Origin: Desulfococcaceae bacterium
GTDB taxonomy: Bacteria > Desulfobacterota > Desulfobacteria > Desulfobacterales > Desulfococcaceae
Direction: 5' to 3'
DNA length: 64,000 nucleotides
Assembly (NCBI GenBank): GCA_050180235.1
Contig: JBFXEJ010000017.1
Coordinates: 4,595 to 68,594 of the forward strand
Shown: one piece after another, positions 184 to 64,000 of the stretch
Layout: each line of letters begins with the position of its first letter
Position numbering within the stretch: position 1 is the first letter of the stretch
The notes under the pieces: model-generated
The model's input: only the letters and a program-made list of their open reading frames with translations
Told to the model about the DNA's origin: nothing
Database searches by the model: none
Made by a program: the position numbers and the translations under genes

Positions 184-1704
184 ATGAAAATATCTCTGAT
201 GCTGTGTCTGATGCTGATGATTTCTCCGGTCTGCACAGTTTTTTCTTTTGATCCGGCTTCCGTAAAAACAGCAAAAATCACAGTTCCGGATCGGGAAGGA
301 CTGATGCGGCTGATTAATATGGGCGCGGATGTTGACAGTGTCCGTGGCAATACCGTCATCGTATATGCTTCAGAGCAACTGCTGGGGGAAATTGCCGCAC
401 TTGGCTATGAAATCAGTATTATACCTGATTTTTTTCCAAATGTTCAGGACAGGGCAGGAACTTATCACTCTTATGAGGAACTGGGAGATGAACTTGATGA
501 TATTGCAGAAAATTATCCCCTTATCTGCCGTATCTTCAGCATTGGGCAGTCTTTTCAGAAACGGGAACTTTGGGTGATGAAAATCACGGATTCGCCGGAT
601 GCGGAAGAGGATGAACCGGAAATCACATTTATTTCTTCCATGCACGGAGATGAACCGGTCGGAATGGAACTGTGCATGAATCTGATTCATCTGCTTGCGG
701 GAAATTATGGAAGCGATCCGGAACTGACTGATCTGGTAAATGAAACTGAAATATGGATTATGCCACTTATGAATCCTGACGGATATGCAATGAAAACCCG
801 TTACAACGCCCAGGGATTTGATCTTAACCGCAGTTTTCCGGATCGGGTTAAAGATCCCTTTGTCTCTTTTGAAGCCCGTCCTGCTGAAACCCGGCACATC
901 ATGAACTGGGCAATGGCAAATTCCCCTGTGCTTTCAGCTTCTTTTCACACAGGAGCGCTGGTGGTCAATTATCCTTTTGACTCTGACCCGAATCCCGGTG
1001 CTTTATATTCCGCTTCGCCGGATGATGAACTCTTTATTGAACAGTCCCTTACGTATTCCTTTCTGAATAAACCCATGTATGACAGTACCGAGTTTGCGCG
1101 CGGAATTGTAAACGGCGTTGAATGGTATCAGGTCTACGGTGGAATGCAGGACTGGCATTATCTCCGGCTGGGATGCAATCAGCTTACCATTGAGCTTTCA
1201 GATGATAAATGGCCTCTATATTCTGAGATACCGGACCTGTGGGAAGACAACCGCTCTGCAATGCTCGCTTATATGCAGTGGAGTCTGAGGGGAATAAGGG
1301 GAATTGTAACGGACAGCATAAGCGGGGAACCGCTGAAAGCCGCAATCCGGGTTGAAGGGATTGATCATGATGTTTTTACCGATCCGGATGCCGGGGATTA
1401 TCACCGGATGCTTGTGCCCGGAACATACAGTATTCAGGTATCAGCCACAGGATATATGGAACGCACGGTCTGCGGTATTGAGGTGGGTTCCGGAAAGGCA
1501 GCACGCGAAGATATTGCCCTGATCCCCAAAAATGCAGGGGATGTGAACGGATATGAAGAAACTGATCTGACTGATGCCATTCTGATTTTGCAAATGCTCA
1601 CAGGCACAAATACAGAAACTGTGAAAACCGCAGTTGATCCGGACAAAGACGGGAAAACCGGTCTGCCGGAAGCCATTTTTATACTCAGACTTTGTGCCTT
1701 CTGA
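184..1704 (+). CDS. secreted M14-family zinc carboxypeptidase with C-terminal dockerin-like repeats
   Basis: ORF 109..1704. ATG at 184 gives signal peptide MKISLMLCLMLMISPVCTVFS. M14 signatures SSMHGDEPVG and NPDGY; carboxypeptidase-regulatory-like segment GIVTDSISGEPL...YSIQVSATGY. Tail DVNGYEETDLTDAILILQMLTG / DPDKDGKTGLPEAIFIL. Confidence 0.85.
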   Translation: MKISLMLCLMLMISPVCTVFSFDPASVKTAKITVPDREGLMRLINMGADVDSVRGNTVIVYASEQLLGEIAALGYEISIIPDFFPNVQDRAGTYHSYEELGDELDDIAENYPLICRIFSIGQSFQKRELWVMKITDSPDAEEDEPEITFISSMHGDEPVGMELCMNLIHLLAGNYGSDPELTDLVNETEIWIMPLMNPDGYAMKTRYNAQGFDLNRSFPDRVKDPFVSFEARPAETRHIMNWAMANSPVLSASFHTGALVVNYPFDSDPNPGALYSASPDDELFIEQSLTYSFLNKPMYDSTEFARGIVNGVEWYQVYGGMQDWHYLRLGCNQLTIELSDDKWPLYSEIPDLWEDNRSAMLAYMQWSLRGIRGIVTDSISGEPLKAAIRVEGIDHDVFTDPDAGDYHRMLVPGTYSIQVSATGYMERTVCGIEVGSGKAAREDIALIPKNAGDVNGYEETDLTDAILILQMLTGTNTETVKTAVDPDKDGKTGLPEAIFILRLCAF

Positions 1705-1923
1705 TTCTTTATGCTTGAAAAAAAAATAATGCCGTACTATAGATTTCAGGAAAATGTTTGTCAAAAAAACATTAGGGTTTTCCCATAATCAATGCTCAGA
1801 GTCTGTAACAAATAACCTTTACAATTTTCTGTCCGAAAACCATTAGGGTTTGCAGCAGCTTATTCTGATACAGACCCTAAGGCACAAAGAGACACAAATT
1901 TTTTTTGTATTCTTGGCAGATTT

Positions 1924-2287: not shown

Positions 2288-3454
2288 ATGACAAAAGAAA
2301 ATGACCGGATCAATGTCCGTGTGCTTTTTGCTCTTACCCTGGTTCACTTCACAGGCGATTTTTACAGTTCCTTCACAGCACCGCTTTTTCCCCTGTTTGT
2401 GGAAAAAATGGGACTTTCCCTGACACAGGTGGGAATCATTGCAGGATTCAGCCGTTTTCTGGCTTTTATTGTGCAGCCTCCGGTGGGCTACCTGGCTGAC
2501 CGGTACCGGACAAGGGCCTTTATTCTTACCGGTATGCTTATGCCTGTGATTTTTGTGCCTCTGTCCGGCATTTCCACAGGATTTTGGACACTGCTCCTGG
2601 CCACTGCGCTGGGTTCTTTCGGCTCTTCCATGTTTCATCCCTCTGTCACAGGAATGGTTCCGGTATATTCCGGCCATCGGGCAGGATTTGCCATGTCTGT
2701 GTTCAATACGGGCGGAACATTTGCCTTTGGTGTCGGCCCGCTTTTTATAACATGGTATGCAGCCCGTTTCGGGCTGGATGCACTTCCGTTCACCATGATT
2801 TTCGGAATGATTGTGTTTGTGTGGATATTCGCGATTCTCCCGCGTCCTGCCAGCGAGGGACTGCGCAGCCTGGGATTTATCGGTTCTGTCAAAGAAAGTC
2901 TGGGCAGTGCGTGGAAAATTGTTGCACTGATATGGGTGGTGATGTTTCTGCGTGCAGTGGTTGGGCAGTCCTTTCTGACTTTCATGCCGGTGCTGTATGT
3001 GCAGAAAGGATATTCCGTTGTTTCAGCAGGTGTGATTTTTTCCCTGTTCACAGTGGCCGGAACCGTCAGCGGGATCACAGCGGGTCATGTATCTGACAGG
3101 ATTGGATTTAAACCGGTTTTTATCTGCTCCCATCTTCTTATGACACCCATGCTGCTGGGGTTTCTGCATTGCACAGGAAACTGGGTTTACCTGGGATCAA
3201 TACTGGCCGGCGGAGCGGTGCTGGCCTCTCTTCCCCTGGGAGTTGTCATGGCCCAGAAAATTGCACCCAAAGGCAGATCCATGGTGGCCAGTCTGATGAT
3301 GGGATTTGCCTATGGACTGGGCGGAATGATTTCACCTCTGGTGGGCAAACTCTCAGATATTTATTCCATCCATACTGTGCTGAGCATTATATCCCTGATT
3401 CCACTGCTGACCCTGGTGCTGATTTGGCGTTTTCCCAACGTGAAAAATGACTGA
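2288..3454 (+). CDS. MFS transporter
   Basis: ORF 2240..3454 with about 12 hydrophobic segments and MFS loop motif GYLADRYRTR. Start at ATG 2288 (MTKEND) preferred but uncertain. Confidence 0.8.
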   Translation: MTKENDRINVRVLFALTLVHFTGDFYSSFTAPLFPLFVEKMGLSLTQVGIIAGFSRFLAFIVQPPVGYLADRYRTRAFILTGMLMPVIFVPLSGISTGFWTLLLATALGSFGSSMFHPSVTGMVPVYSGHRAGFAMSVFNTGGTFAFGVGPLFITWYAARFGLDALPFTMIFGMIVFVWIFAILPRPASEGLRSLGFIGSVKESLGSAWKIVALIWVVMFLRAVVGQSFLTFMPVLYVQKGYSVVSAGVIFSLFTVAGTVSGITAGHVSDRIGFKPVFICSHLLMTPMLLGFLHCTGNWVYLGSILAGGAVLASLPLGVVMAQKIAPKGRSMVASLMMGFAYGLGGMISPLVGKLSDIYSIHTVLSIISLIPLLTLVLIWRFPNVKND

Positions 3455-3717: not shown

Positions 3718-5499
3718 TCATTCCCCGCTGAGTTCCTCTTCAATTTCCTGCAGACGCCAGGTGCGCGCGTAATAACCGTTGCCAGCCAGCAGTTGTGCAT
3801 GTGTGCCGGATTCTGTGATGCGTCCGTCCGTGAGCGTGATGATCCGATCTGCAAAGCGCAGGGCAGACAGACGGTGTGAAACAATGATTACAGTCCTCAG
3901 TTGAGCGGGGTTCCGGCAGATTTCCCTTATGGTCTGAATAATTGCAGTTCCGGTTTCCGCATCCACCTGACTGATGGGATCGTCCAGAATCAGTATGGGC
4001 GCGTTTCTAAGCAGAGCTCGGGCCAGCGCGATCCTCTGTTTCTGTCCTCCGGACAGAATCACCCCTTTTTCTCCCACAATGGTTTCCAGTCCCTGGGGAA
4101 AATCAGCTATGGTATTTTCCAGAGCAGCTTTGCGCACTGCTTCCCTCAACTGCTCTTCACTGACATCAGGACTGCCGAATGTGATATTTTCCCGGATGGT
4201 TCCGGAAAAAAGAAAGGGTTCCTGGGGCACAAAGGAAATCAGTCCGCGCAGGTCAGAAAGAAATATTTTGCGAATATCCATCCCGTCCAAACTGATGCTT
4301 CCCTGCGAAACATCGTAAATCCGGGGAATCAGTTGCAGCAGAGTGCTTTTGCCGCTTCCGGGCGGCCCCACAATGCCAAGCGTGTTTCCCTTTTCCACCC
4401 GGAAACTGATATTGTCCAGCACCATCGGACTGCCGGATTTGGGATCAGCAGACTGGGGGGCATCATAGGAAAATCCAGCATTTTCCATGATGATTTCGCG
4501 TGTGAATTCCTTAAAGGAAACTGCATCCGGATGATCCTTTATGTCCGGCAGAGTCCGGATAATCAGGGCAACGCGCTCCAAAGATGCCTTTCCCCGCTGG
4601 ATCAGATTGATGACCCATCCCAGAGCCATCATGGGCCAGGTCAGCATTCCCAGATAGCTGATAAAAGCCACAAAATCACCGGGTGTAATCACAGCGAAAA
4701 TGGTTTCCCGTCCGCCCAGCCACAGGACAAGGGTAAGGCTGAGATTGGTGAAAAAAACCATCATGGGAAAAAACGAGCCGGTTGTGCGTGCCAGCCGCAG
4801 ATTCCGTGTCATATTTTCTCTGGAGATTTTTTCCACCACAGACACAGATTCTGCCTCCCGGTTATATGCTTTGACAATACGGATTCCGGCAAAGCGTTCC
4901 CGCACAATCTCAGTCAGATCCGAAAACGCTTCCTGCACCGACATATACGCACTGTGCATCTGTTTGCTGAAAAAACGGGTGCATAATGCAATCAAAGGCA
5001 TTGGAATAATGACAAAAAGGGTCAGTCGCAGATTGATATACATCATAAATCCGATGGTCATCATGCCCATTACAATGGAATCTGTGACAGCCACCAGACC
5101 CATACCTGCCGCCATACGGATCTGCTGCATATCATTGGTGGCATGGGCCATTATGTCACCGGTTTTCACACGGCTGAACCATGAATCCGGCAGAGTCTGC
5201 AGATGATCAAACAGCCGGTTGCGCAAACCTTCTTCCAGTTCACGGGACATGCCCATAAGATAATAGCGCCACATATACCGCAGCACAACCATGATGAGGG
5301 CCAGTCCCGTAATCCACAGCCCGTAGCGCAGCAGGGACGCGGAATCCGTGCGGAACGCGGTAAGATCGTCCACCGCGGCTTTGATAATGCGGGGAACAAT
5401 GAGTTGCAGCAGATCAACCAGAATCAGGGCCAGCAGGCCCAGAAAAATGCCGAAACGGTTGCTGACAAAATAAGGGCGGATCAGATCAAAAGGTTTCAT
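3718..5499 (-). CDS. ABC exporter, fused permease/ATPase (MsbA/multidrug type)
   Basis: 593 aa with an N-terminal 6-TM domain. Walker A GPPGSGKST, ABC signature LSGGQKQR, Walker B ILILDD. Confidence 0.9.
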   Translation of the reverse strand: MKPFDLIRPYFVSNRFGIFLGLLALILVDLLQLIVPRIIKAAVDDLTAFRTDSASLLRYGLWITGLALIMVVLRYMWRYYLMGMSRELEEGLRNRLFDHLQTLPDSWFSRVKTGDIMAHATNDMQQIRMAAGMGLVAVTDSIVMGMMTIGFMMYINLRLTLFVIIPMPLIALCTRFFSKQMHSAYMSVQEAFSDLTEIVRERFAGIRIVKAYNREAESVSVVEKISRENMTRNLRLARTTGSFFPMMVFFTNLSLTLVLWLGGRETIFAVITPGDFVAFISYLGMLTWPMMALGWVINLIQRGKASLERVALIIRTLPDIKDHPDAVSFKEFTREIIMENAGFSYDAPQSADPKSGSPMVLDNISFRVEKGNTLGIVGPPGSGKSTLLQLIPRIYDVSQGSISLDGMDIRKIFLSDLRGLISFVPQEPFLFSGTIRENITFGSPDVSEEQLREAVRKAALENTIADFPQGLETIVGEKGVILSGGQKQRIALARALLRNAPILILDDPISQVDAETGTAIIQTIREICRNPAQLRTVIIVSHRLSALRFADRIITLTDGRITESGTHAQLLAGNGYYARTWRLQEIEEELSGE

Positions 5500-5688
5500 G
5501 GTTTATAAAAAAAATTAAATTTTTCCTGCAAATTCAGGGCAATTTGAACAAACTAGTGAATCATATGGCGGGCGGATAACGGTCTTTTCACACCCTGTCC
5601 ACTAAAAAATATAACGTACGGCTCACCATCTGTAGGAAGATTCCACAAAACTGGCTAAATGCCGATGCTTTTCTAAAAATTGAAAATT

Positions 5689-5735
5689 TCCAAATCAGCT
5701 CGGCCCCTGCAGTCTGGTGCAGCCGATTGTTCGGC
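5689..5735 (-). mobile_element. degenerate attC-like site (of the 155-aa-ORF cassette)
   Basis: Minus strand, 2 nt after the stop: GCCGAAC-AATCG-GCTGCA-CCAGAC-TGCAG.... R'' differs by 1 nt from the complement of the cassette start TTCAGC. No clear R' box. Confidence 0.4.
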
Positions 5736-5737
5736 AA

Positions 5738-6205
5738 CTATGCTATTGCAGGTTCGACAAATGCATAAGTTACTGGCTTATGTGAAGCAAGACCGTTTTC
5801 AGCCATCCATTCGTGAAACGATTCCAAATCGATACCTTCCGGTTCCGTCCAAGTGTCTTCTCGAAGGAAGTGCCAAACATACTCGCGAATGAATCCCTCA
5901 TTTCGTATGCGAACGAGGGAATGAAGATAGTCGTCTGTAATGACCAAATCATCTGGATAAGTGGCCCAAAATTCTGCCAGAGCATCTCGAGCAAAGCACT
6001 CCTCATCAAATGATGATGGTTGACCGATTCTCTCAGGATGCATTTCAAAGTATTCACCGGTGCGTACCAGGACTTTCGTTCCGGCATAAGTCGTCCACGC
6101 TGCAGCAGTTTCAACACCGGTTTGAGCTCCAGGGTGCAAGTTGATTGTCCACTCTGGTTTTTTACGCTTTCTTTTAAACAGCCATCTGAACATTCGAAAC
6201 CTCAT
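5738..6205 (-). CDS. hypothetical protein, integron-cassette borne
   Basis: 155-aa ORF. Its ATG lies exactly 2 nt after the attC core GTTCAGC (6214..6208). No recognisable domain. Confidence 0.5.
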   Translation of the reverse strand: MRFRMFRWLFKRKRKKPEWTINLHPGAQTGVETAAAWTTYAGTKVLVRTGEYFEMHPERIGQPSSFDEECFARDALAEFWATYPDDLVITDDYLHSLVRIRNEGFIREYVWHFLREDTWTEPEGIDLESFHEWMAENGLASHKPVTYAFVEPAIA

Positions 6206-6207
6206 TT

Positions 6208-6293
6208 GCTGAACAATGAGTTAAGCGGCTCAAAGGGTGGAGCGACCGCAGGGAGCGGAACCCTTTGAGTCCGCTTGAGCGCCGGGTTAGCCC
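6208..6293 (-). mobile_element. integron attC recombination site (of the 390-aa-ORF cassette)
   Basis: Minus strand: GGCTAAC-CCGGC-GCTCAAGCGG...CCGCTTAAC-TCATT-GTTCAGC, giving R''-5nt-L''...L'-5nt-R' with an extrahelical base in L'' (GCT-C-AAGCGG vs GTTAAGCGG). R'' GGCTAA is the exact complement of the cassette-start TTAGCC at 7661..7656. Confidence 0.75.
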
Positions 6294-6480
6294 TTTTTCT
6301 GTATCTTTGTGGTTGATAAGCACTGTTTTATATTATCGGATAATTGGTTATAAAATCAAACCTTTGCTTATATTTTTTGATAAATTTTATTCCTTATTAT
6401 AAAAAATTGCCATTAAATTCAATATCCAATCTGTGATTTTTACTTTTGTTTCTCTTTTGCGTACATTATCTAAGAATTTA

Positions 6481-7653
6481 CTATTGTGTCCTCGGAATTT
6501 GTTCACGGAATTCCATGTGAAAAGTTGACTCAAAGTAGGACAGGACTTTTTCCCATTGTTCGAATGGGGCGGTCAGTGTGAATATTATCTCTATCGGCCA
6601 TTCGCCCGAGTCTGAGATGTAAAAAACCACTTTTCTTTCTGGCCAACCGCATTCCGAATTCTCCTTTATGATTTTATCAACACGATAGAACATCTCGGTT
6701 TTGTAAAGGTTCGGCTGAGGATCATTAAAGTGGTAGTTCAGTAATTGATCTCGAGTTCTTAGAAATCCGGTCCGTCCGTGCCAACACCGACCATAATTAA
6801 GATTCAAGAGCAAATTTCCCTTGGGGATTTCTTGCTTGGTATCGATATCAGAAGTTGCCTCAGCTTTAAATGTATAATAATCTGTATGAAGCGATTCCTC
6901 CCAACTATCGAATTCCGGCAGGTCAAATTTGATTTTAAGACTTGTTCCCGGAATCAGTATCCCCAGATTGCTGGGAGCTTCTTCTGGGATGCGGTTTGGA
7001 TCCGGCTGCTCTTCACCCGTCATGAGATCAAGAAGCCACCAGCCATCATTTCGCCAAAACTTCATTAAATAGCTATGCGGCACGAGAGTGAAACTGGCAG
7101 CACTGCCTGAAGCTTCAATATTATATTGGCGGTATATTTTTTCATACGAAAATACAAAAACTGTGTATTGATAAATCGGAAAGTTATGCGGACGCCCTGG
7201 AATAATTTCCTCGCGATAAACAGAGTCAAAGTGTTGGATGGCAACCCATAAGTCTGAGTTATCAATAGGATAGGCATGACTTATTGCATCGGAAATTAAG
7301 TCCGTATTGGAACGAAGGAACTTCATCTCAATTGGCTTACCGTTTCCATTTTGTATAAAGTAACGGAATTGATATCCAATTGGATAATTGTCCCTTGGCC
7401 CTTCCGGAGTTAAAAACAAATTTGCCCTTTTGATAATTTGTTGAACGAGAAGGCGTTGTTCTTTTTTTTGATTCTCGGCATGTCGTACAGACAGCACAAC
7501 GGGTTGTTCGATATCACTGCCCGTCCTGTAACCGACAGGGAAGGGCCCCATCCCTACACAACCATAAAAAGCGTACAGCGATAATCCTAACAGAATCACA
7601 TCTAAATTAGCTCTGTTGAGTTTCATATTAAATAAAGATCGTAAATTTTTCAT
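6481..7653 (-). CDS. hypothetical exported protein, integron-cassette borne
   Basis: 390-aa ORF with N-terminal hydrophobic segment LDVILLGLSLYAFYGC. Visibly more AT-rich than its neighbours. ATG lies 2 nt after core GTTAGCC (7662..7656). Confidence 0.6.
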   Translation of the reverse strand: MKNLRSLFNMKLNRANLDVILLGLSLYAFYGCVGMGPFPVGYRTGSDIEQPVVLSVRHAENQKKEQRLLVQQIIKRANLFLTPEGPRDNYPIGYQFRYFIQNGNGKPIEMKFLRSNTDLISDAISHAYPIDNSDLWVAIQHFDSVYREEIIPGRPHNFPIYQYTVFVFSYEKIYRQYNIEASGSAASFTLVPHSYLMKFWRNDGWWLLDLMTGEEQPDPNRIPEEAPSNLGILIPGTSLKIKFDLPEFDSWEESLHTDYYTFKAEATSDIDTKQEIPKGNLLLNLNYGRCWHGRTGFLRTRDQLLNYHFNDPQPNLYKTEMFYRVDKIIKENSECGWPERKVVFYISDSGEWPIEIIFTLTAPFEQWEKVLSYFESTFHMEFREQIPRTQ

Positions 7654-7839
7654 TTGGCTAACCAGTTATTATCCGGATCATGATAACATTCGATTCTGCA
7701 TATTATCATGATCTGTAAAAATTCATCCTGAGATTTTTACCATATCATACAATAGAGATCAACAGAATATGAGTATTCCAGATCATCAGATTCAACTTTG
7801 ATAATGCCGCAGAAGATCAAAAAATTCCATCACACTAAG

Positions 7840-7900
7840 GAAAGCCGGAGTTCAGAACCGTCAGAAAATGCTGAATTCCGGCTTTCGCCGGAATGACGGT
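7840..7900. repeat. REP-like family C unit
   Basis: aaagccggagttcagaacc...gaattccggctttcgccggaatgacgg. Confidence 0.65.
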
Positions 7901-7966
7901 CAGATCTAATAACTGCCTGATTTTTGGAAAGACTGCATAACATCACTTATAACTTATAAATGGATA

Positions 7967-8431
7967 TTATTTCTCTGACCTGTGATTTATCTGATTCACA
8001 GAATTCTGGTTCGACAGTTCGGAAAGGAGATCTCTGATGCTCCAAATCTTTACTCCATGACGTTCCATAGCCGAACGCAGTTCATCATCTGCCTGCAAAT
8101 CCTTATCCCCGGAAACGATGGCATCTGCCTGCCCGTCTGTCGCAGTTGCCAAAACCGGATGGTCTTTGGGATCACGGCATAAAGGCGGAACTGTTTGCAG
8201 ATTTACCATTTTTCCGCGCTGATACAACTGTTTCAGCAGAATTTCCGCATGATCCTGATTGATATATTTCTTCAGACGCGAACGCTGCCGGACTTCATCA
8301 AATTCATCAATAAGTGGCTGACTGACAATCACTATGAACTTGTTTTCCCTCCATGCCTGCAAAACAGGCAGTGCAGAACGTCCACCAGGCAATGCACTGA
8401 TCCATATATTTGTATCAACAACTGTTTTCAT
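7967..8431 (-). CDS. PIN-domain toxin (type II TA, PIN_3-like)
   Basis: MKTVVDTNIWISAL (conserved Asp) and ...ATDGQADAIVSGDKDL, typical of the PIN fold. A small upstream ORF is present. Confidence 0.8.
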   Translation of the reverse strand: MKTVVDTNIWISALPGGRSALPVLQAWRENKFIVIVSQPLIDEFDEVRQRSRLKKYINQDHAEILLKQLYQRGKMVNLQTVPPLCRDPKDHPVLATATDGQADAIVSGDKDLQADDELRSAMERHGVKIWSIRDLLSELSNQNSVNQINHRSEK

Positions 8432-8491
8432 TGCACTGCCGGTTGTCTGTGTTTTTGGCGGACAGCCTGTATTTCCTTTGCAATATCAGCA

Positions 8492-8686
8492 TCACTGATA
8501 TTTTTTTTCCTCAACAGCAGCCAACCGGACAATCAGATCATCGAGTTCAGCATCCAAATCTGTTTCAGCCAGAACCTTTGCCACCTGAATACGTGACGGT
8601 TTGTCCAGATCGCGGATGATCGCAAGCAACTGATCAAGGTTCAGGCTGACATTGGGAATTGTAATTTCTGCTGCCTGTATATTCAT
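8492..8686 (-). CDS. putative antitoxin partner of the PIN toxin (apparently truncated at an A8 tract)
   Basis: 64-aa ORF directly upstream of the PIN gene. It stops 60 nt before the toxin ATG, and the alternative frame after the A8 run reaches a TGA that overlaps that ATG. Confidence 0.5.
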   Translation of the reverse strand: MNIQAAEITIPNVSLNLDQLLAIIRDLDKPSRIQVAKVLAETDLDAELDDLIVRLAAVEEKKYQ

Positions 8687-8736: not shown

Positions 8737-9483
8737 TCATGGTTTGTAAGAATTCTGCAATATGCTTTCCATTCGGGCAATATCTTCAGGCAGATCCACT
8801 TCAGGCGAATCATACTCGGTGACAATAACTTTGATTTTGTAACCGTATTCCAGTGCGCGGAGCTGTTCGAGTTTTTCAATGCCTTCCAGTTTTCCCTCAG
8901 GCAGTTTTCTGAATATATCCAGAAAAGACCGGGTATAGGCATATACACCAAGATGCTTGTATGTGTCAAACACGGCAGACGGTTCCCGTCCGAAGGGAAT
9001 GGCCGAGCGGGAAAAATACAGGGCAAATCCCTGCGAGTCAAACACGACTTTCACATCTTTGGGATTGGTGATTTCTTCGGGACGGACAATTTTGTATGCT
9101 AAAGTGCTCATGTTCAGGCCCGGATCGGAAAAAAAAGGACTGACCACCTCATCCAGACAGCGGGAATCCAGCAGAGGCTGATCTCCCTGCACATTGATGA
9201 CAATATCCTCAGGTGCAAGCCCCATCTGATGCGCGGCATCACCTGCCCGATCCGTGCCGGAGCGGTTTTCCGCAGAAGTCATCATGGCCCTGCCACCAAA
9301 GGAATGCACGGCATCCAGAATCCGGGCATCGTCTGTCGCGACCACCACATCAGTTACATTTTCCGCTTTTCGAGCGGCTTCATACACACGCTGAATCATG
9401 GCTTTGCCCGCAATCTTTGCCAGAGGCTTGCCCTTAAAACGGGTTGATCCGTAACGGGAGGGAATAATTACCGCAATTTTCAT
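8737..9483 (-). CDS. kdsB: 3-deoxy-manno-octulosonate cytidylyltransferase (CMP-KDO synthetase)
   Basis: MKIAVIIPSRYGSTRFKGKPLAKIAGKAMIQRV... with full-length KdsB-like layout, 248 aa. Confidence 0.9.
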   Translation of the reverse strand: MKIAVIIPSRYGSTRFKGKPLAKIAGKAMIQRVYEAARKAENVTDVVVATDDARILDAVHSFGGRAMMTSAENRSGTDRAGDAAHQMGLAPEDIVINVQGDQPLLDSRCLDEVVSPFFSDPGLNMSTLAYKIVRPEEITNPKDVKVVFDSQGFALYFSRSAIPFGREPSAVFDTYKHLGVYAYTRSFLDIFRKLPEGKLEGIEKLEQLRALEYGYKIKVIVTEYDSPEVDLPEDIARMESILQNSYKP

Positions 9484-11342: not shown

Positions 11343-12554
11343 TCAGGAATTGCCGCGGCTCTCCCGCCCGGCTGTCACAATATCACGTTCTGCTGCCCAT
11401 TGCCCGATGTCCTCTTTTTTAATGGCAGCAGCCATAAGCCGGGGAAAAAGATCGGGCGTGCAGGCAAACGCGGGCGCGCCCAAAGCAGACATCTTTGCCG
11501 CCAGTTCTTTATCGTAAATGGGCGCTCCTTCGTCACTCAGCGCCAGAAGGGTAATGAACTGAACACCGGAAGCAATAAGCTCCTGGGTGCGGCTGAGCAG
11601 CTCTTGGGCAACTCCGCCTTCATACAGATCGGAAATGAGAACGAAAATGGTATTTCGCGGCTCCCGGATCAGGGTCTGGCAATAGGCCACAGCCTTGTTG
11701 ATAAAAGTGCCGCCCCCAAGCTGTGTTCCGAACAGCACTTCAACCGGATCATCAAGTTTGTCTGTGAGATCCGCCACAGCCGTGTCAAAGACAATCAGCC
11801 GGGTGGAAACTGCGGGCAAAGTGGCCATTACTGCGCCGAATATGCTGGAATACACCACTGACGAGGCCATAGAGCCGCTCTGGTCAATGGCCAGAATAAT
11901 GTCACGCTGGGTGCGCCGGGACTTGCGTCCGAACCCGATTAAGCGTTCCGGGATAATGGTTTTATATTCCGGCTGATAATGGTGCAAATTGGCCCGGATG
12001 GTTCGGTGCCAGTCCATTTCCGGAAGACGCGGCCTGCGGTTGCGGACTGCCCGGTTCAGAGCTCCGGTCACTGCGGTTTTCATGGGCTCTTCCAGCTTTT
12101 TCATCAATTCGTCAACCACCCTGCGGACTACGGCACGCGCGGTTTCTTTAGTGCGGCTGGGAATCACACTGCTGAGGGCAATCAGACTGGCCACAAGGTG
12201 AACATCCGGTTCCGCAGCTTCGAGCATTTCCGGTTCCAGTAACATGCGCTGCAAATCAAGACGCTTGAGCGCATCCTGCTGCATGACCCGGACTATGCTT
12301 TTGGGAAAATATTTGCGTATATCTCCCAGCCACCGGGAGACCGTGGGGCTTGAAGCTCCGGAACCGCCGCGCCCCTGACGCCCCAGACCGCGTTCCGGGC
12401 CCGCGTCGTATAATGCCTGAAGGACCAGATCCATAGCGGTATCCTCACTGCTCAGGCCGATACCGATACCGTCCGCTTCTTCACCGCCGAGAATCAGGCG
12501 CCAGCGCCGCTGGCGTTCTTCCGCTGGTTCAGAATGTAAGGAAGTGTCTGACAT
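11343..12554 (-). CDS. VWA domain protein (YehP-like)
   Basis: 403 aa with MIDAS motif AIDQSGSM. Last gene of the SWIM/AAA/VWA operon. Confidence 0.85.
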   Translation of the reverse strand: MSDTSLHSEPAEERQRRWRLILGGEEADGIGIGLSSEDTAMDLVLQALYDAGPERGLGRQGRGGSGASSPTVSRWLGDIRKYFPKSIVRVMQQDALKRLDLQRMLLEPEMLEAAEPDVHLVASLIALSSVIPSRTKETARAVVRRVVDELMKKLEEPMKTAVTGALNRAVRNRRPRLPEMDWHRTIRANLHHYQPEYKTIIPERLIGFGRKSRRTQRDIILAIDQSGSMASSVVYSSIFGAVMATLPAVSTRLIVFDTAVADLTDKLDDPVEVLFGTQLGGGTFINKAVAYCQTLIREPRNTIFVLISDLYEGGVAQELLSRTQELIASGVQFITLLALSDEGAPIYDKELAAKMSALGAPAFACTPDLFPRLMAAAIKKEDIGQWAAERDIVTAGRESRGNS

Positions 12555-12582
12555 AATTTTTTTATCCGCTAAACGAAAATTA

Positions 12583-12641
12583 ATACCGATTCTCCATTGA
12601 AAACATGCTGATATTGGATCAAATCAATGGCGATTCGGCAT
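12583..12641. repeat. family B MITE-like palindromic element (short form)
   Basis: ataccgattctccattga...tcaatggcgattcggcat. Confidence 0.75.
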
Positions 12642-12723
12642 GATGCTGATCCGAACTCTGCGAAAATCTGAGCAATTTGCGGATTGCTGTCCGCAGATTT
12701 CACAGATTTTCGCAGATTGTTTC

Positions 12724-12781
12724 ATACCGTTTCCCCGCTGAAAAATACTGATATTGGATCAAATCAATGTCGATTCGGTAT
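12724..12781. repeat. family B MITE-like palindromic element (short form)
   Basis: ataccgtttccccgctga...tcaatgtcgattcggtat. Between the two copies lies a 14-bp perfect inverted repeat, tctgcgaaaatctg/cagattttcgcaga. Confidence 0.7.
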
Positions 12782-12977
12782 AAAAACAGATTGCCCGCTC
12801 CCCCACTCCGCGTCAATGCCATTACGTTTACGTTAAGGACAAAGGAGTCCCGAACTGAAAGTTTGGGACATGAAATGATTCACAAAATCCGGCCAAAATT
12901 CCGTTTCACTTCATTTCGGCACTCCGGAAATTCCCTGATCCGGGGCCTTGACACGAATAACGGGAATGAGAAAACAA

Positions 12978-15314
12978 TTATAATCCCAATAACTTTGCCG
13001 CTTCTGTTACCGCCCTGTCGCCCCATTCCTTATTGAAATGCCCGGTTTTTCCATGCGCATGAGCGGCGGTTCGGGTGGAGGTCTTCTGCCGCGTTTTCAC
13101 CCGGGAGCCAAGCTGCTGCCGTTCTGGAGGAGAAAAGGTGCTGAAGGTTCTCCGCATTAACGGCAGCAGCTCGGTAAAGCGATCCGATGGCAGTTCGCAG
13201 ACCCAGGCATCGAGCACATCCCAAAGATTGCTGTCGTGAAAAAGAATCATTCCGCTTCCTTCCAGAAAACCCTGAACCCAGGCGGCTGCCATTGCCGTTT
13301 CATTTCCCGGAGATACGGCCAGAGACATAAGCCGGGCTGTTTCCTCACGTTCAATCTCATTTTTATCAAAAAGCAGGCGGCACACCTTTCCCCGCACCAG
13401 GGCATTGATGGTATCGCTGCTGAGTATGCCGCGCAGGGCTGCTGTCCACGCACCGCGATGGGCCTCATTTTCCAGCAGAAAGACTGCGTGATTTGCCGCT
13501 GTTATTTTTCCGTTCATGGACTGGGCCGCATCTTCATCCAGAGACTGGCACGCGGGCTGCAGACCGATACAGATGCGGGCAATCAGGCCGTCAACCACTT
13601 CGCCCACCATAGCGGAATCGCTCTGGCGCACATTGCCGTAGCGCAATATCGTCACCAAAGACGGAAGTGCCTGCATAAGCCCTGTGACATCATTGGTCTG
13701 TGCAGAACGTGAGCGGAGAGCGCTGACCACCGGATCAACCGTAGCCGGGAGTTCCGAAAGCAGCACAGCGTTGATCAACCCGGCAAGCTCCGCGATGCTT
13801 TCGGTTTTTTTGGCTGTATGAACCGCTTTTGCAGTCGCGGCCAGTTCCACAGTGGTTCCCCACATGGCCGCTTCAATAACGGTTACGACAAATTCCGGCT
13901 GCCATTTGATATGCCAGTATTCATGGAAAGTGCCTTTTTTTCCGTAACCGCCCTGAACCTGCTTCCCCCAGGGAATGTTCAGAAGGTTGAGCCGGTGCAG
14001 CAGATGGCTTCGGGCCAGACCGTTGGGCGTGCGCAGATCCAGATCAATCTCTTCGGTGTCTGCCGATGGTTTGAGGCGAAGGCTTCTCTGCTGTTTTTCA
14101 AGGTCGGTCTGGAGGGGCACTTTGGGCGTATCGGCCGGAGTTGATCCCATCCGCTCGCCGATGAGCAGGCGATCCCGGATAAAAATCATGGGGGAGCGAT
14201 CACCGAAGCAGAGCACGGACTGGGTCGCGTCATTGAGTTCCTCAAGTCCGGGAAAAGGGCGCTGACGCATTGCGGCCAGGGACTCGGCCAGACGAACCGC
14301 ATCGATGATGTGGGCTGTGGAGGCGTCAAGATCGGCTTTTCGCAGCAGTTCAGCCACCCGGATAAACCAGCGCGTGGCCAGAAGGCTTGGCGTCTGCCCG
14401 GTATCCTCCCGGCGATGATGCCAGAGATGCTCATACCAGCCCGGCGCACTTATGCCCGCGCCGTATCCGCTCCGGCGGGCCAGCCGACCGTAAGTCCAGG
14501 GAATCCAGGTGGTTTCCACCCTGATTTTGGGGAGCCCCCGCAGCAGTTCATTGTCATCTTTGACTTTTGCATCCGCGACAAGCGCGGGCACATGCCAGGC
14601 CCCGCACACGACCGCGATATTTTCATACCCCTGTTTTTCCGCCACACGGATGGTCTTCCGCATCCAGGCTTCCCGGCGCTGTTCCCGAAGCCTTTCATCC
14701 CCGCTGTAAAGGCTGGGAAACTGCTCCCGCAGGCCTGTCATGACATCCGCAATGGCCCTGAACAGTTCTCCGCTGTCAAGGCGTTCCTCCACAGCATGTT
14801 CCCACCATGCCTCCCCGTCCTCATATCCGGCATGGCGTGCAAACCAGTCCAGAGGATCTGCGGGATCCGGCCGGTCGCCGGTGGGAGAATCGCTGGGTTC
14901 CTCCGCACGCTCCTCCTGCGTTTCGACTGTTTCCGGAACAGGAGATTCTGTCCCGGATGACGGAGCATCCGCGGTCTGTTCCTGACTGAGGGCAAGCTGA
15001 TGTCTCTGGGGGAGATCCATGAACTGCACCGGAATATTACGCTTAAGAGCAAACCGCATGGCCTGCCATTCCGGGGAAAATTCGGCAAAGGGATAAAATA
15101 CGGATCGAAGCGGGTTCTGCCCGTCATATATCAGCAGCGCGACCGGAGGGTTCATGTCCTCCCGGCCTGCCAGACCGATATATTCATCAGCATCCGGCGG
15201 GCCTTCGATGAGCAGATAATCCGGTTTCATCTCGTCCAGAGATCGGATCAGATTGCCCGCCGATCCCGGTCCGTGATGGCGGATGCCAAACACTGTGAAT
15301 GGGGATTTTTTCAT
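12978..15314 (-). CDS. large DUF5682-like protein (YehM-like)
   Basis: 778 aa with N-terminus VFGIRHHGPGSA. Lies 6 nt downstream of the AAA gene. Family assignment is from memory of conserved SWIM/AAA/VWA clusters. Confidence 0.75.
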   Translation of the reverse strand: MKKSPFTVFGIRHHGPGSAGNLIRSLDEMKPDYLLIEGPPDADEYIGLAGREDMNPPVALLIYDGQNPLRSVFYPFAEFSPEWQAMRFALKRNIPVQFMDLPQRHQLALSQEQTADAPSSGTESPVPETVETQEERAEEPSDSPTGDRPDPADPLDWFARHAGYEDGEAWWEHAVEERLDSGELFRAIADVMTGLREQFPSLYSGDERLREQRREAWMRKTIRVAEKQGYENIAVVCGAWHVPALVADAKVKDDNELLRGLPKIRVETTWIPWTYGRLARRSGYGAGISAPGWYEHLWHHRREDTGQTPSLLATRWFIRVAELLRKADLDASTAHIIDAVRLAESLAAMRQRPFPGLEELNDATQSVLCFGDRSPMIFIRDRLLIGERMGSTPADTPKVPLQTDLEKQQRSLRLKPSADTEEIDLDLRTPNGLARSHLLHRLNLLNIPWGKQVQGGYGKKGTFHEYWHIKWQPEFVVTVIEAAMWGTTVELAATAKAVHTAKKTESIAELAGLINAVLLSELPATVDPVVSALRSRSAQTNDVTGLMQALPSLVTILRYGNVRQSDSAMVGEVVDGLIARICIGLQPACQSLDEDAAQSMNGKITAANHAVFLLENEAHRGAWTAALRGILSSDTINALVRGKVCRLLFDKNEIEREETARLMSLAVSPGNETAMAAAWVQGFLEGSGMILFHDSNLWDVLDAWVCELPSDRFTELLPLMRRTFSTFSPPERQQLGSRVKTRQKTSTRTAAHAHGKTGHFNKEWGDRAVTEAAKLLGL

Positions 15315-29174: not shown

Positions 29175-29466
29175 ATACCGATTCGCCATTGAAAACATAC
29201 TTATGAAACACAGCCCTGTCCCTCTCAGGAGGGGATTTTATTAAAAAATCGGTAGTGGGACTGCTCATACTGATTTTTTTAATATATAAATCAATATGTT
29301 ATTTATAATCAGTATAAGCAGTATCATGGATGTATCGTATAACTATTTGTATTTATTATGTATAGACAAAAATCAGTATATTTTTTAAAATATAATAATA
29401 TCAAATAGTTAATTTTTTGTCAGTATGTGCAGACCCACTACCAAAAAATCAATGGCGAATCGGTAT
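29175..29466. repeat. family B element carrying a nested family A MITE
   Basis: ataccgattcgccattga...[A element 29251..29442]...tcaatggcgaatcggtat. Confidence 0.8.
29251..29442 (+). mobile_element. MITE family A copy (192 bp) with 8-bp TSD AAAAAATC
   Basis: Ends GGTAGTGGGACT...GCAGACCCACTACC (imperfect terminal inverted repeat). Identical flanks at 29243..29250 and 29443..29450. Inserted inside a family-B element. Confidence 0.85.
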
Positions 29467-37147: not shown

Positions 37148-37203
37148 TGATAACACTAAGTTCAGGGGCGGCGATAGCCGTCCCCTGCAACGCTGGGTTA
37201 TGT
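37148..37203 (-). mobile_element. integron attC recombination site (56 bp)
   Basis: Minus strand: ACATAAC-CCAGC-GTTGCAGGGGACGGC-TATC-GCCGCCCCTGAAC-TTAGT-GTTATCA, with extrahelical G and A in the 5' arm. Lies 19 nt downstream of the stop of 37223..37831. Confidence 0.7.
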
Positions 37204-37222
37204 TTTTTTCTGATTATTAAGG

Positions 37223-37831
37223 TTAATCTCTTATTCCTGAAACTACCTGTAATGCCCTGATTGCCTCTTCCAATCCTATCTTATCATCACCGTTAACATC
37301 CCATCTTGCTCTTTCGGTCTTTACGGCTTCTTCGCATGGACTTGGCAAAGGCTGTCCCGTTTCGACATAGGTTTTCGTAATATTGCCTTCAGAATCAAGC
37401 AGTTCAATTTTTATAACTTTGCAAAGCCAGTATGTCTGTTCTTCATAAGGCCAAATTGTTGCATTTTGCTTTTCAACCGTGCAAAGTAAGTTTGCTTTAT
37501 GGTTTCCTGGTTCTATCTGAGCGTTAATGAGTTCTCCGGCAAAACCCTTTGTTACATAAAAATTGATTTCTCCGGAATTACTATGCCCGTAATGTAATTC
37601 AATGTAATAATCGCCATTTTTACTTTTCACATAGAAGGTGTAAATAACAGGATTAAATTCATCTACTTTTCTGAAATCAGGCTGAAAAGTTGCACCATCA
37701 AAATATACTGTAGTTCCTTCATAATTTTCAGGTGAAAAATTAACCTGTTCCATTGTGGGGTTAGGATAATCCTGCCCCCAAGCCAAACCTCCAATCAACA
37801 GAATTGATACACACAATATTAGCCTTTTCAC
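37223..37831 (-). CDS. hypothetical secreted protein with dockerin-like tail, cassette borne
   Basis: GTG 37831 is preceded by GGGAGAGAAG. Signal peptide VKRLILCVSILLIGGLAWGQ; C-terminus DVNGDDKIGLEEAIRALQVVSG. An attC lies 19 nt downstream of the stop. Confidence 0.6.
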   Translation of the reverse strand: MKRLILCVSILLIGGLAWGQDYPNPTMEQVNFSPENYEGTTVYFDGATFQPDFRKVDEFNPVIYTFYVKSKNGDYYIELHYGHSNSGEINFYVTKGFAGELINAQIEPGNHKANLLCTVEKQNATIWPYEEQTYWLCKVIKIELLDSEGNITKTYVETGQPLPSPCEEAVKTERARWDVNGDDKIGLEEAIRALQVVSGIRD

Positions 37832-37855
37832 TCTCTTCTCTCCCTTTTCTAAGAA

Positions 37856-37914
37856 ACATAACCAGTTGTTATGCGGTTTTTTTGTCTTAAAGCATGAAAA
37901 AATGCGTGTTATGC
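37856..37914 (-). mobile_element. attC-like upstream cassette boundary (weak)
   Basis: Minus strand: GCATAAC-ACGCA-TTTTTT...AAAAAAA...GCATAAC-AACTG-GTTATGT. The terminal TTATGT is the exact complement of R'' ACATAA of the attC at 37148..37203. Confidence 0.4.
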
Positions 37915-38100
37915 GGATAGCAACTTTCATGCCAAATAATCCGAGTCACTTACCGTTACATTAAAAAAATCAGATTTATTTTATACAGTCTCTATGAACA
38001 AGTCAAGAACAAAAGAAGATAATCCATAAGATATGCGGGTCTGATTTAAATAAAGACGGCAGTTTGTGCAGCAGAAATACAGGCAACTCATGTTATGCAC

Positions 38101-38175
38101 CACCGTCATACCAACGAAAGCCGGTATCCAGAACTTCTTGAATTTAATGGATTCCAGCTTTCTCCGGAATGACGG
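38101..38175. repeat. REP-like family C unit
   Basis: caccgtcataccaacgaaagccggtatcc...gattccagctttctccggaatgacgg. Confidence 0.7.
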
Positions 38176-38256
38176 CTGATACTATAATATACTGATTTTT
38201 AATATAATTACGTAACATGAAAAAATAAATCGGACAGTATGGTATATTAAAAGATT

Positions 38257-38448
38257 GGTAGTGGGACTTTTCATGCTGATTTTTTTAATATATAAATTAA
38301 TATGTTATTTATAATCAGTATAAGCAGTATCATGGATGTATCGTATAACTGTTTGTATTTATTATGTATAAACAAAAATCAGTATATTTTTGAAAATATA
38401 ATAATATTAAGCAGTTATTTTTTTGTCAGTATGTGCAGACCCACTACC
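38257..38448 (+). mobile_element. MITE family A copy (192 bp), no obvious TSD
   Basis: Near-identical to 29251..29442, including the core tcatggatgtatcgtataac...tttgtatttattatgtata. Confidence 0.8.
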
Positions 38449-38451
38449 CAA

Positions 38452-38510
38452 ACCGGAATCCGGTAATGTCAGGCGTTCCGGATACCGGCTTTCGCCGGTA
38501 TGACGGTGGT
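38452..38510. repeat. REP-like family C unit
   Basis: ccggaatccggtaatgtcaggcgttccggataccggctttcgccggtatgacgg, abutting MITE A copy B. Confidence 0.7.
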
Positions 38511-38544
38511 GGCTTAACATCAGTTATAATCAATCCTTCGGATT

Positions 38545-51077: not shown

Positions 51078-51268
51078 GGTAGTGGGACTTTTCATGCTGA
51101 TTTTTTTAATTTATAAATCAGTATATTATATAAAATCAGCACGAACAGTATCATGGATGTATCGTATAACTATTTGTATTTATTATGTATAGACAAAAAC
51201 CGGCATTTTCTGAAAACATAATAATATAAGACAGTTAAATTTTAACCAGTTTGTGCAGACCCACTACC
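51078..51268 (+). mobile_element. MITE family A copy (191 bp) with 8-bp TSD AAAAATTT
   Basis: Same termini. Flanks 51070..51077 and 51269..51276 are identical. Lies between the methyltransferase and PD-(D/E)XK genes. Confidence 0.85.
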
Positions 51269-62434: not shown

Positions 62435-63312
62435 AACAGTATACAATTTCCTGGACACATCAGGGGCGGGAATGGAATCTCAGACTTGGTGAACGCACCT
62501 GCGTGATGGGAATTCTGAATGTTACGCCTGACTCTTTTTCAGATGGAGGCATTTTCTTTGACTTTGAAAAAGCCCTTGCCCAGGCAGAAAAAATGGTCGG
62601 AGACGGAACTGATATTCTTGATATCGGGGGCGAATCCACCCGTCCTTTTTCCGAAGAGGTTTCTGTGACTGAGGAAATCCGGCGGGTGGTTCCGGTTATT
62701 GAAAAACTGGTTTCCGGCAAAATTCCGGTTCCCATATCCATAGATACGGCAAAAGCAGAAGTCGCTAAACAGGCTTTGGACGCTGGTGCGTCCATTATCA
62801 ATGATATTTCCGCGCTGCAAAATGATCCGGAAATGGCGTCTCTGGCTGCTGAATACAGAGTGCCGGTCATCATGATGCATATGAAGGGAACTCCCAAAAC
62901 CATGCAGGTTGATCCGCATTATGATGATCTGCTTGGGGAACTGCACCTGTTTTTTGAACAGGCTATTTGCAGGGCAGTGAAAAGCGGCATAGAACGCTCG
63001 AAGATTATCATTGATCCGGGGATTGGTTTCGGAAAAACAAAGGAGCATAATCTTTGTCTTATCAGACGGCTGGACGCGTTTGCAGATTTGGATGTGCCGA
63101 TTCTGGTGGGTTCATCCCGAAAGGCATTTATTCGCAATCTCCTGAAAAAAGAAGGGGAAAAGGATATAAATCCCCTGTCGCCCATTGTGGAAACCGGAAC
63201 CCAGGCCAGTGTGGCAGCCTCTGTTCTGTCAGGTGCGCATATTGTCCGGGTTCACAATGTGGCCAATACCCGTGCAACGGTGAGGATTGCTGATGCCATC
63301 CGGAATGTGTAA
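62431..63312 (+). CDS. folP: dihydropteroate synthase
   Basis: [14 protein letters not shown] and DIGGESTRP; ATGA overlap with ftsH. Confidence 0.95.
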
Positions 63313-63664: not shown

Positions 63665-63834
63665 ATCAGATTTTTCCCTGATAAGCGGCTTTTTGGAATA
63701 TTATCAGGGAAAACTGACCTGATAACTGCTGTTTTTGACTGTTATCAGGGAAAGTTCCCTGATATTGTGTTATCACGGGAATCTTCCCTGATAATGGCGG
63801 TTTTGGGCTGTTATCAGGGAAAAGTTCCTGATAA
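63665..63834. repeat. array of five ~25-bp palindromes TTATCAGGGAAA-n-TTCCCTGATAA
   Basis: Sites at 63665..63684, 63701..63725, 63742..63764, 63770..63794 and 63811..63834. The last four show 69-bp periodicity. The array ends 24 nt before ATG 63859. Confidence 0.8.
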
Positions 63835-63858
63835 TCAATGGTTAGAAGGCATAGATAA

Positions 63859-64000
63859 ATGGTGATAAGACATTACATAAAATGTGATACATGCAATACA
63901 CCACATACATTGCGTATTGGGCTAGGGCATAACGATTGGCAAGAGCATACTTTTCCATGTGTGGAATGCGGTGAGGACATTTCTGTAGGCGTAAAATTAG
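63859..64000 (+). CDS. 5' part of a zinc-ribbon-containing ORF running off the window
   Basis: MVIRHYIKCDTCNTPHTLRIGLGHNDWQEHTFPCVECGEDISVGVKL (CxxC...CxxC). Open at the window end and not in the ORF track. Confidence 0.3.
   Translation, partial: MVIRHYIKCDTCNTPHTLRIGLGHNDWQEHTFPCVECGEDISVGVKL

Follow-up and report, generated by a model that had tools for sequence, protein, structure and literature searches.

Clusters of attC sites that lack an integron-integrase (CALINs) are defined in IntegronFinder as two or more attC sites in a cluster (within 4 kb) that has no intI gene nearby, and both their origin and their mobilisation in trans have been discussed (PMC4889954). Small CALINs and single attC sites lacking integron-integrases (SALINs) can arise by genomic insertion, as experiments have shown (Loot et al., bioRxiv 10.1101/2022.09.11.507474). 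A textbook attI site lies beside intI, has two binding boxes in inverse orientation and has its crossover in GTT; accessory repeats often accompany it (PMC3146285). Here, a 64,000-nt stretch of contig JBFXEJ010000017.1 from a Desulfococcaceae bacterium (GCA_050180235.1; hereafter the window) was analysed, and its minus-strand segment 7676..5609 is probably an integrase-less integron platform of the CALIN kind, consisting of an attI-type site and two gene cassettes, each with a complete attC, whose exchange would be carried out by an integron integrase (IntI) acting in trans. Close relatives used for comparison are called sister contigs or sister metagenome-assembled genomes (MAGs).

A first-pass annotation of the same letters had proposed gene cassettes with a canonical attC in a CALIN-like array and no integrase in the window, and this core claim is borne out by attC geometry, attC scores and the rule that governs cassette boundaries. 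Read along the minus strand, the order is kdsB, a 64-aa open reading frame (ORF), a PIN_3 gene, ~300 nt of non-coding DNA, the junction CCGGATAATAACTGG|TTAGCCAAATG, a 390-aa ORF, an 85-nt imperfect palindrome (attC1), a 155-aa ORF, a 127-nt imperfect palindrome (attC2) and an ABC-transporter gene. The two attC sites lie 473 nt apart on the same strand, and with IntI1 and four IntI sequences of chromosomal integrons as tblastn queries nothing below E = 0.3 was returned in the window or in the sister contigs L122 and L123, in keeping with the annotation, which had seen no intI. The GC content is 0.37-0.43 over 6000..7750 against about 0.47-0.53 in the flanks, so the segment is AT-rich as had been stated.

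The attC sites and their cassettes

The 5' arm of attC1 is made up of R'' GGCTAAC, the spacer CCGGC and L'' GCT[C]AAGCGG with an extra A, and is followed by a variable hairpin and a 3' arm of L' CCGCTTAAC, the spacer TCATT and R' GTTCAGC. The annotation had placed this site at 6293..6208; its palindrome and geometry hold, while the first position is 6292 instead of 6293. Both strands fold to the predicted imperfect hairpin, beating shuffled sequences (z -3.4 and -4.4), with the unpaired bases on the R''/L'' arm, where extrahelical bases set the strand polarity of an attC and where the annotation had noted one in L''. The sequence of the aadA-type 59-base element with which the annotation had compared the site is exact (100% in 1962 plasmids). 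The 5' half of attC1 matches an attC from a Rhodocyclaceae contig (L003) at 21 of 22 positions, and a homologue of the site is present in the sister contig L123 at 7729-7816.

Covariance models were made from the attC sites of bona fide integron arrays, without window sequence: R1 from 44 sites and R2 from 106 array sites with more L-box types. The general attC alignment is the model-guided A6; two MAFFT alignments put the 3' spacer out of register. With these models attC1 scores 48 bits (R1, E about 1e-12) and 41 bits (R2, E about 1e-8), and its opposite strand only 13.4 and 9.8 bits, which indicates that the models are strand-specific. A third site near 37 kb (the 37-kb attC) reaches 40.1 bits with R2 and 28.8 bits with R1, and the scores of both sites are within the range of real array sites. 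The covariance check advised by the annotation therefore gave significant matches for attC1 and the 37-kb attC and a weak one for attC2, with R1 and R2 standing in for IntegronFinder's own model. As a positive control, the experimentally known aadA1 attC (plasmid R100) is recovered by R2 with 73 bits, and is the sole match on the correct strand. No Rfam family reached its gathering score anywhere in the window.

The wider distribution of the motif was followed with an exact L''/L' pattern (TCAAGCGG…CCGCTTAAC…GTT) in one genome per species, which yielded at least 120 loci. Among the matches listed, AAC occupies the exact R'' position, 5+2 nt upstream and outside the pattern, in 102 of 147 sites (1.6% expected), and a near-full-length IntI with 48-58% identity to IntI1 is encoded at 12 or more loci, the query being 100% identical to the IntI1 of R100. 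The pattern loci are arrays, with 440 model matches in 538 kb, and there is covariation in their attC helices, where 90% of cells pair in register but only 25-45% with a slid partner. Judged by this sequence context, the attC motif is one that belongs to real integron arrays. Separately, L002 and L024 (CAVQWT010000002.1, uncultured beta-proteobacterium) contain at least 13 near-identical attC sites in runs ~296 bp apart, which look as if a very short cassette, probably without an ORF, had been amplified in tandem.

The second site, attC2, begins with GCCGAAC-AATCG 2 nt past the stop of the second ORF, one mismatch from GCTGAAC, as the annotation had read it. It had been taken for a decayed site without R', and this does not hold: attC2 is complete, with R'' GCCGAAC, spacer AATCG and L'' GCT[G]CACCA[GA] on one arm and L' TGGTGAGC, spacer CGTAC and R' GTTATAT on the other, where TGGTGAGC lies 93 nt downstream of GCT[G]CACCA and forms pairs with it. 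A sequence-free rule for attC (AAC, 5 nt, 3 bp, a 1-nt bulge in the 5' arm and 5 bp, then 5 nt and GTT, at 50-150 nt overall) is passed by attC2 and the 37-kb attC alone when both strands of the window are searched, against 0.05 sites expected, and attC1 joins them when one mismatch is allowed (1.3 expected). This rule replaced a looser first geometry scan, which passed over attC1 with its second bulge and caught an unrelated 78-nt repeat. The bottom strand of attC2 folds with z -2.9. Its R' and flank, GTTATATTTTTTAG, recur in L123 directly after the last attC of that contig, and mark the target site's original right half.

In all three sites AAC and GTT are exact, both spacers are 5 nt long, and L'' has a 1-nt bulge after its third base, with another bulge 5-6 bp further; the degenerate box positions (R'' RYYYAAC, R' GTTRRRY) deviate in places, as they do in many array sites. 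On the top strand attC1 has C as the bulged base, which gives the canonical G on the bottom strand, while attC2 and the 37-kb attC have G, as do some array sites such as L103:4817.

Cassette boundaries follow from the same boxes, a gene cassette being a unit between G|TT crossovers that usually has one promoterless ORF and then its attC, with R'' complementary to its first bases. Cassette 1 starts TTAGCC and its R'' is GGCTAAC, complementary at all four variable R'' positions (those other than AAC); GTTAGCC (7662..7656), before the first ORF, is the exact complement of that R''. Cassette 2 starts TTCAGC, preceded by the G of GTTCAGC, and its R'' GCCGAAC agrees with the expected GCTGAAC at 6/7 positions and is complementary at 3/4 variable ones. 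The 37-kb cassette starts TTATGT, the exact complement of ACATAA in its R'' (4/4). The units of 1448, 599 and 708 nt thus each combine one ORF with complementarity between R'' and cassette start. Direct reading confirmed the cassette logic of the annotation, including a first ATG 2 nt past the 7-mer in both ORFs of the array, although the second ORF more likely starts at its second ATG, 6193, because GAGG lies 6 nt upstream of it and the resulting 151 aa match the length of the protein collection entry P0006.

Both array ORFs had been said to encode proteins of unknown function, and neither has a Pfam match. The 390-aa protein, which has only 4 distant homologues among 5.8 billion proteins, carries a probable lipoprotein signal (..LYAFYGC), and the cassette 2 protein has about 30 homologues, environmental and none with a Pfam family. 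In exact look-ups both proteins were found only on one 6-kb Logan contig with the same layout. Contigs such as L203 encode homologues of the 155-aa protein, and in L203 a long hairpin repeat, TAAGAAGCGGTTTCAAAAC…GTTTTGAAACCGCTTCTA, lies between small same-strand ORFs (690..780 and 1713..1740); it may be another class of cassette site, missed by the models.

attI-type sites and neighbouring DNA

The annotation had reported no visible attI. An attI-type simple site, s1, is nevertheless present at the left junction of the array, and a site with the perfect canonical attI sequence lies near the other end of the window at 63827..63844. In s1 an L-box-like CCGGATAAT is followed by the 5-nt spacer AACTG and an R box GTTA.... 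The site is 17/18 identical to the folP-linked attI of the sister contig L332, CCTGATAATAACTGG|TTA, and 16/18 identical to the attI beside intI in Desulfopila (L264). The canonical site lies 330 nt past folP (stop at 63312) with no intI between them, and a cassette ORF begins after it and runs off the window end. It is preceded by 4-5 alternating CCCTGATAA/TTATCAGGG units.

The reference for these assignments is the IntI of L017, a deltaproteobacterial integron with its attI ~100 nt from intI. The best 80 IntI loci related to it were fetched and 39 loci of one clade (62-100% identity to the IntI of L017) examined; in 30 of them TTATCAGGGCAAA…CCTGATAAT-[C/A]AATG-G|TT is found 80-250 nt from the intI start. 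This motif fits the textbook attI because it has inverted boxes and accessory repeats. Clade integrons that are 94-100% identical diverge straight after G|TTA, and every attC match at the clade loci is on the expected strand. A position weight matrix (PWM) from the 30 IntI-linked sites gives 63827..63844 (+) 31.6 bits, the maximum possible and the best score in the window, and gives s1 20.1 bits, second in the window, where the maxima of shuffled windows are 9-21 bits. In 2 Mb of unrelated loci, only the true attI of L017 (31.6) and a site in L121 (17.8) score 17 bits or more beyond the pattern-selected sites. Sequence, architecture and crossover position thus fit attI, 63827 being the clade consensus and s1 matching at 16-17 of 18 positions; intI is not adjacent. 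The inverted repeat that abuts s1 (I2) is interpreted as a degenerate set of attI accessory repeats, because its layout (TGATAA unit, 16 nt, TTATCA unit, L box) is that at 63672..63844.

A third attI-type site, s2, heads the single cassette at 37 kb. The s1 and s2 junctions share CCGSATAAYAACTGG|TTA, which has two matches in the window (0.02 expected), and 17/19 bases are common to them although they are 30 kb apart. Among 185,579 species genomes the junction 18-mer CCGSATAAYAACTGGTTA was matched 39 times, eight of them in Desulfobacterales, including four on different contigs of a sister MAG. Strong attC matches in the same orientation lie downstream at 6 of these 8 loci, while the other 31 have a single, weak one (15.7 bits, E = 0.59); no IntI was found within 4 kb of the 18-mer loci. 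From these comparisons, the lineage is seen to keep several intI-less platforms: the canonical attI-type site after folP at 63827, the variants at 7676 and 37876, and at least 4 more in the sister MAG.

In the form CCGCATAA[C/T]AACTGG|TTA the 18-mer heads cassette arrays at L215, L221, L223 and L240 (sister MAG CAZHPS01), L211, L228 and L247. In L223 there are two modules in tandem; each consists of a ~250-nt repeat, with the site at its end, and is followed by cassettes and attC. In the window, s2 stands at the end of an ~80-nt unit that recurs 96% identical in L223; this contig was considered as an orthologue of the 37-kb locus and rejected, the two having in common only a 79-nt unit that ends at the crossover, i.e. 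a repeated unit. Also rejected was the possibility that s1 and s2 are 3' halves of decayed attC sites: no R''/L'' partner lies upstream and folds show the R-box palindrome only. A double-stranded simple site is favoured for both. A metagenome scan for the left flank TTATCATGATYCGGATAATAA found nothing.

By its ABC transporter the window is assigned to uncultured Desulfobacterales, and the sister genomes show what varies at these junctions. In both L122 (about 93% nucleotide identity) and L123 (about 87%) the transporter and kdsB-antitoxin-PIN are conserved, and the DNA between differs. In L123, homology with the window stops beside the G|TT junction and resumes at GTTATAT, and the flanks enclose different ORFs, one attC that has decayed and, at the end, a homologous one (23 bits). 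Four sister contigs recovered via FolP homologues (L329-L332) all have a folP-linked attI with attC downstream, L331 ending just past its first attC, and the cassettes after the folP-linked G|TT differ mutually between the L329-L331 type, L332 and the window. Further along the folP-linked array of L329, at 15276, is a second attI-like unit, TCTGATAATAAATGT|TTA (18 bits), and within the array, at 11683..13149, a 488-aa reverse transcriptase (RVT_1), probably of a group II intron.

The coordinates of the window features are collected in Table 1. The PIN toxin-antitoxin (TA) pair, which the annotation had placed after the cassette segment, lies upstream of the array and outside it, on the cassette strand. 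It is context and not a cassette, because it is conserved outside the variable segment and carries no attC. A promoter scan was not above background (10 found, 6.5 expected).

Several repeats occur around these loci. An element resembling a miniature inverted-repeat transposable element (MITE), CCGTCATTCCGGCGAAAGCCGGAATCCAG…CTGGATACCGGCTTTC…GGTATGACGG, lies upstream of both cassette loci, at ~7824..7943 (-) and ~38090..38235 (-) with an arm at 38475..38511, and is present in L122 and L123 too. Its outer ends read ATGTTA[C/T]GCAG / TGC[G/A]TAACAT; in copies with C, such as that of L123, the end contains GTTACGC, the attI1 DR1 core, which may be coincidence. A 78-nt AT-rich intergenic repeat (GTATAACTATTTGTATTTATTATGTATAGACAAAAATCAG…) has three copies on the plus strand (29337..29414, 38343..38420 and 51164..51240) and contains the motif AAAATCAG, which recurs near cassette loci. 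In L122, the nearest relative among the sister contigs, a 152-aa ORF at 2313..2771 lies in the variable segment that separates PIN from the transporter; it has weak similarity to the Cap4 dsDNA endonuclease domain (E 2e-4, below the Pfam cut-off), and no attC is present.

Table 1. Coordinates of the integron-related features and their neighbours in the window
Feature	Position	Strand	Description
ABC-transporter gene	3718..5499		Beyond attC2 in the minus-strand reading
Probable integrase-less integron array	7676..5609	minus	attI-type site s1, cassette 1, cassette 2
attI-type simple site s1	7676..7659	minus	CCGGATAATAACTGG|TTA; crossover G7662|T7661
Candidate degenerate accessory repeats	7669..7720	minus	GATCATGATAA-16 nt-TTATCATGATC; inverted repeat I2, abuts s1
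Cassette 1	7661..6214	minus	1448 nt; ends with G of attC1 R'
Cassette 1 ORF	6481..7653	minus	390 aa, no Pfam family
attC1	6292..6208	minus	85 nt; R'' GGCTAAC 6292..6286, R' GTTCAGC 6214..6208
Cassette 2	6213..5615	minus	599 nt
Cassette 2 ORF	5738..6205	minus	155 aa, or 151 aa from ATG 6193
attC2	5735..5609	minus	127 nt, complete; R' GTTATAT 5615..5609
Non-coding DNA	between PIN_3 gene and s1		~300 nt, includes MITE-like element
PIN_3 toxin	7967..8431		Pfam E 5e-19
PIN/antitoxin pair	7967..8686		Upstream of the array and outside it
kdsB	8737..9483		Upstream flank of the array in the minus-strand reading
SALIN-type platform	37876..37148	minus	One cassette
attI-type site s2	37876..37859	minus	CCGCATAACAACTGG|TTA
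37-kb cassette	37861..37154	minus	708 nt
37-kb cassette ORF	37223..37831	minus	202-aa secreted protein
37-kb attC	37203..37148	minus	ACATAAC...GTTATCA
Canonical attI-type site of the Desulfobacterales IntI clade	63672..64000	plus	4-5 alternating CCCTGATAA/TTATCAGGG units, then CCTGATAATCAATGG|TTA at 63827..63844

Origin and activity of the array

For a platform serviced in trans, an IntI encoded elsewhere would bind the folded bottom strand of the attC of a circular cassette and recombine it with the attI-type site at G|TT (7662|7661), so that the newest cassette would come to lie next to the site; recombination between two attC sites, or between attI and attC, would excise cassettes again. 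That the integrase acts in trans is inferred because sister genomes carry different cassettes at the same junctions with no intI beside them, and on this interpretation recombination would still be ongoing.

Several results weigh against such a reading. An integrase for this genome was not found in the window or in the sister loci searched: IntI is absent from the sister contigs L329-L332, covering up to 10 kb of flank and about 20 kb around folP, and the sister MAGs are not among the best 80 IntI loci. By covariance attC2 is weak, with 9.7 bits from R2 and E = 6 window-wide, yet the match has exactly the ends given here; R1 and R2 are biased to proteobacterial attC types and their E-values are rough. 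The PWM score of s2 is only 8.4 bits. L122 has unrelated DNA with no attC, and s1 and its surroundings are missing from it, so that the locus varies in part in a way that is not of the integron type. Homologues of the cassette ORFs were not beside recognisable attC sites in the few contigs that could be read with R2 (L202-L208), a negative of little weight since the models are proteobacteria-centred.

The DNA of L122 would also suit an inert fossil, in which a complete integron lost its intI, for example by insertion of the MITE-like element or the TA genes, exchange ceased and the sister differences are ordinary indels. The degenerate accessory repeats at the attI-type site and the MITE-like element between PIN and s1 agree with this, and intI loss is listed as one origin of CALINs (Cury et al. 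2016, PMC4889954). A fossil is nonetheless unlikely. No intI pseudogene signal was seen: the best candidate, at 9216..9426 (+), was matched by three IntI queries at E 0.4 or worse, is antisense inside kdsB and has no IntI motif. Moreover, L123 shows a cassette-precise replacement in which the attC is homologous and the R' flank unchanged, and the folP-linked attI, also without intI in the window and in four sister contigs, is followed by different cassettes after G|TT.

Insertion at a secondary site (attG) would place the cassettes at an ordinary 5'-GWT-3' and make the likeness to attI fortuitous. The arrays are small (two cassettes and one), far from intI and of a class for which Loot et al. 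propose attG insertion (10.1101/2022.09.11.507474), and the crossover is at G|TT. An attG, however, needs only GWT and weak flank preferences, whereas here 17/19 bases are common to the two distant junctions, the motif recurs at array heads in at least 6 other Desulfobacterales loci and s1 nearly equals the folP-linked attI (17/18), which makes a chance target distinctly improbable. Hardly any weight can be given to an origin outside integrons, as repetitive extragenic palindromic (REP) repeats or intrinsic terminators downstream of ORFs. GC-rich imperfect hairpins do stand straight after the ORFs and other intergenic repeats occur in the window, yet there are only three such sites in 64 kb, every one at an ORF end, their stems have no sequence in common, none is followed by a T-run and a terminator scan finds no terminator there. 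The AAC/GTT boxes, 5-nt spacers and bulges at fixed positions, the strand-specific models (41 bits for the cassette strand, 9.8 for its complement) and the absence of an Rfam match also argue against repeats of this kind. A genome-wide REP and a lack of further attC sites had been named in the annotation as grounds for dropping its proposal; neither was found, given the 37-kb attC and the arrays of the sister genomes.

Beyond the integrase-less platform itself, a "distributed integron" is suggested tentatively, at somewhat less than an even chance: several docking sites without a linked integrase, occupied by strain-specific mini-arrays and serviced by a single unlinked or incoming integrase. 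In detail, one canonical attI-type site would stand after folP, with ~18-bp variants embedded in repeated units of ~85-250 nt. If this is true, attI would behave as a multi-copy and possibly mobile landing pad and not as a unique partner of intI. The analysis provides junction-level evidence that, in an uncultured order that is dominant in the environment, CALINs and SALINs are real and seem to be active, and an attI consensus for a large IntI clade in which attI was otherwise unknown and unsearchable. It also makes testable whether unlinked platforms are routinely serviced in trans and whether attI multiplies within one genome. The cassette genes are without known function and have no resistance or clinical angle.

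Comparison with known integrons

The kind of element is already known, as CALIN or SALIN, and the new aspect is the presence of multi-copy intI-less attI-type sites. Like the CALINs described by Cury et al. 2016 (PMC4889954), the array contains two or more attC sites within 4 kb on the same strand, cassettes of unknown function and a small size, and like 95% of CALINs it does not have an intI pseudogene next to it. It differs in being headed by a recognisable attI-type site, attI being outside the CALIN definition and unknown for most integrons, and in that several platforms lie in one 64-kb stretch. The 37-kb cassette fits the SALIN definition, and both loci resemble the SALIN and attG insertions (10.1101/2022.09.11.507474) in their isolated or two-cassette arrays away from intI, G|TT crossover and double-stranded target. 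However, attG sites share only GWT, whereas here a conserved 18-mer akin to the attI of the lineage is reused at many loci.

The complete integrons of Desulfobacterales and Deltaproteobacteria (Desulfopila sp. IMCC35008, Desulfospira joergensenii DSM 10085; L248-L290) share the attI consensus TTATCAGGG..CCTGATAAT-NAATG-G|TT, the same attC class and the same orientation of attC to attI. They have intI 80-250 nt from attI, while in the window and its sisters that place is taken by folP, upstream of the canonical attI-type site, or by PIN, antitoxin and kdsB, upstream of s1, so that neither locus is a complete integron. Among individual sites, attC1 can be set beside the aadA1 attC of the class 1 integron In2 of R100, which is found by the same model R2 and has the same box order, spacing, extra L'' base and extra A after L''. 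The aadA1 site is shorter (60 nt against 85 nt) and its L boxes read GCCG/CGGC where those of attC1 read GCGG/CCGC; furthermore, attC1 has one C.A mismatch beside the bulge, and the cassettes of the window are without resistance genes.

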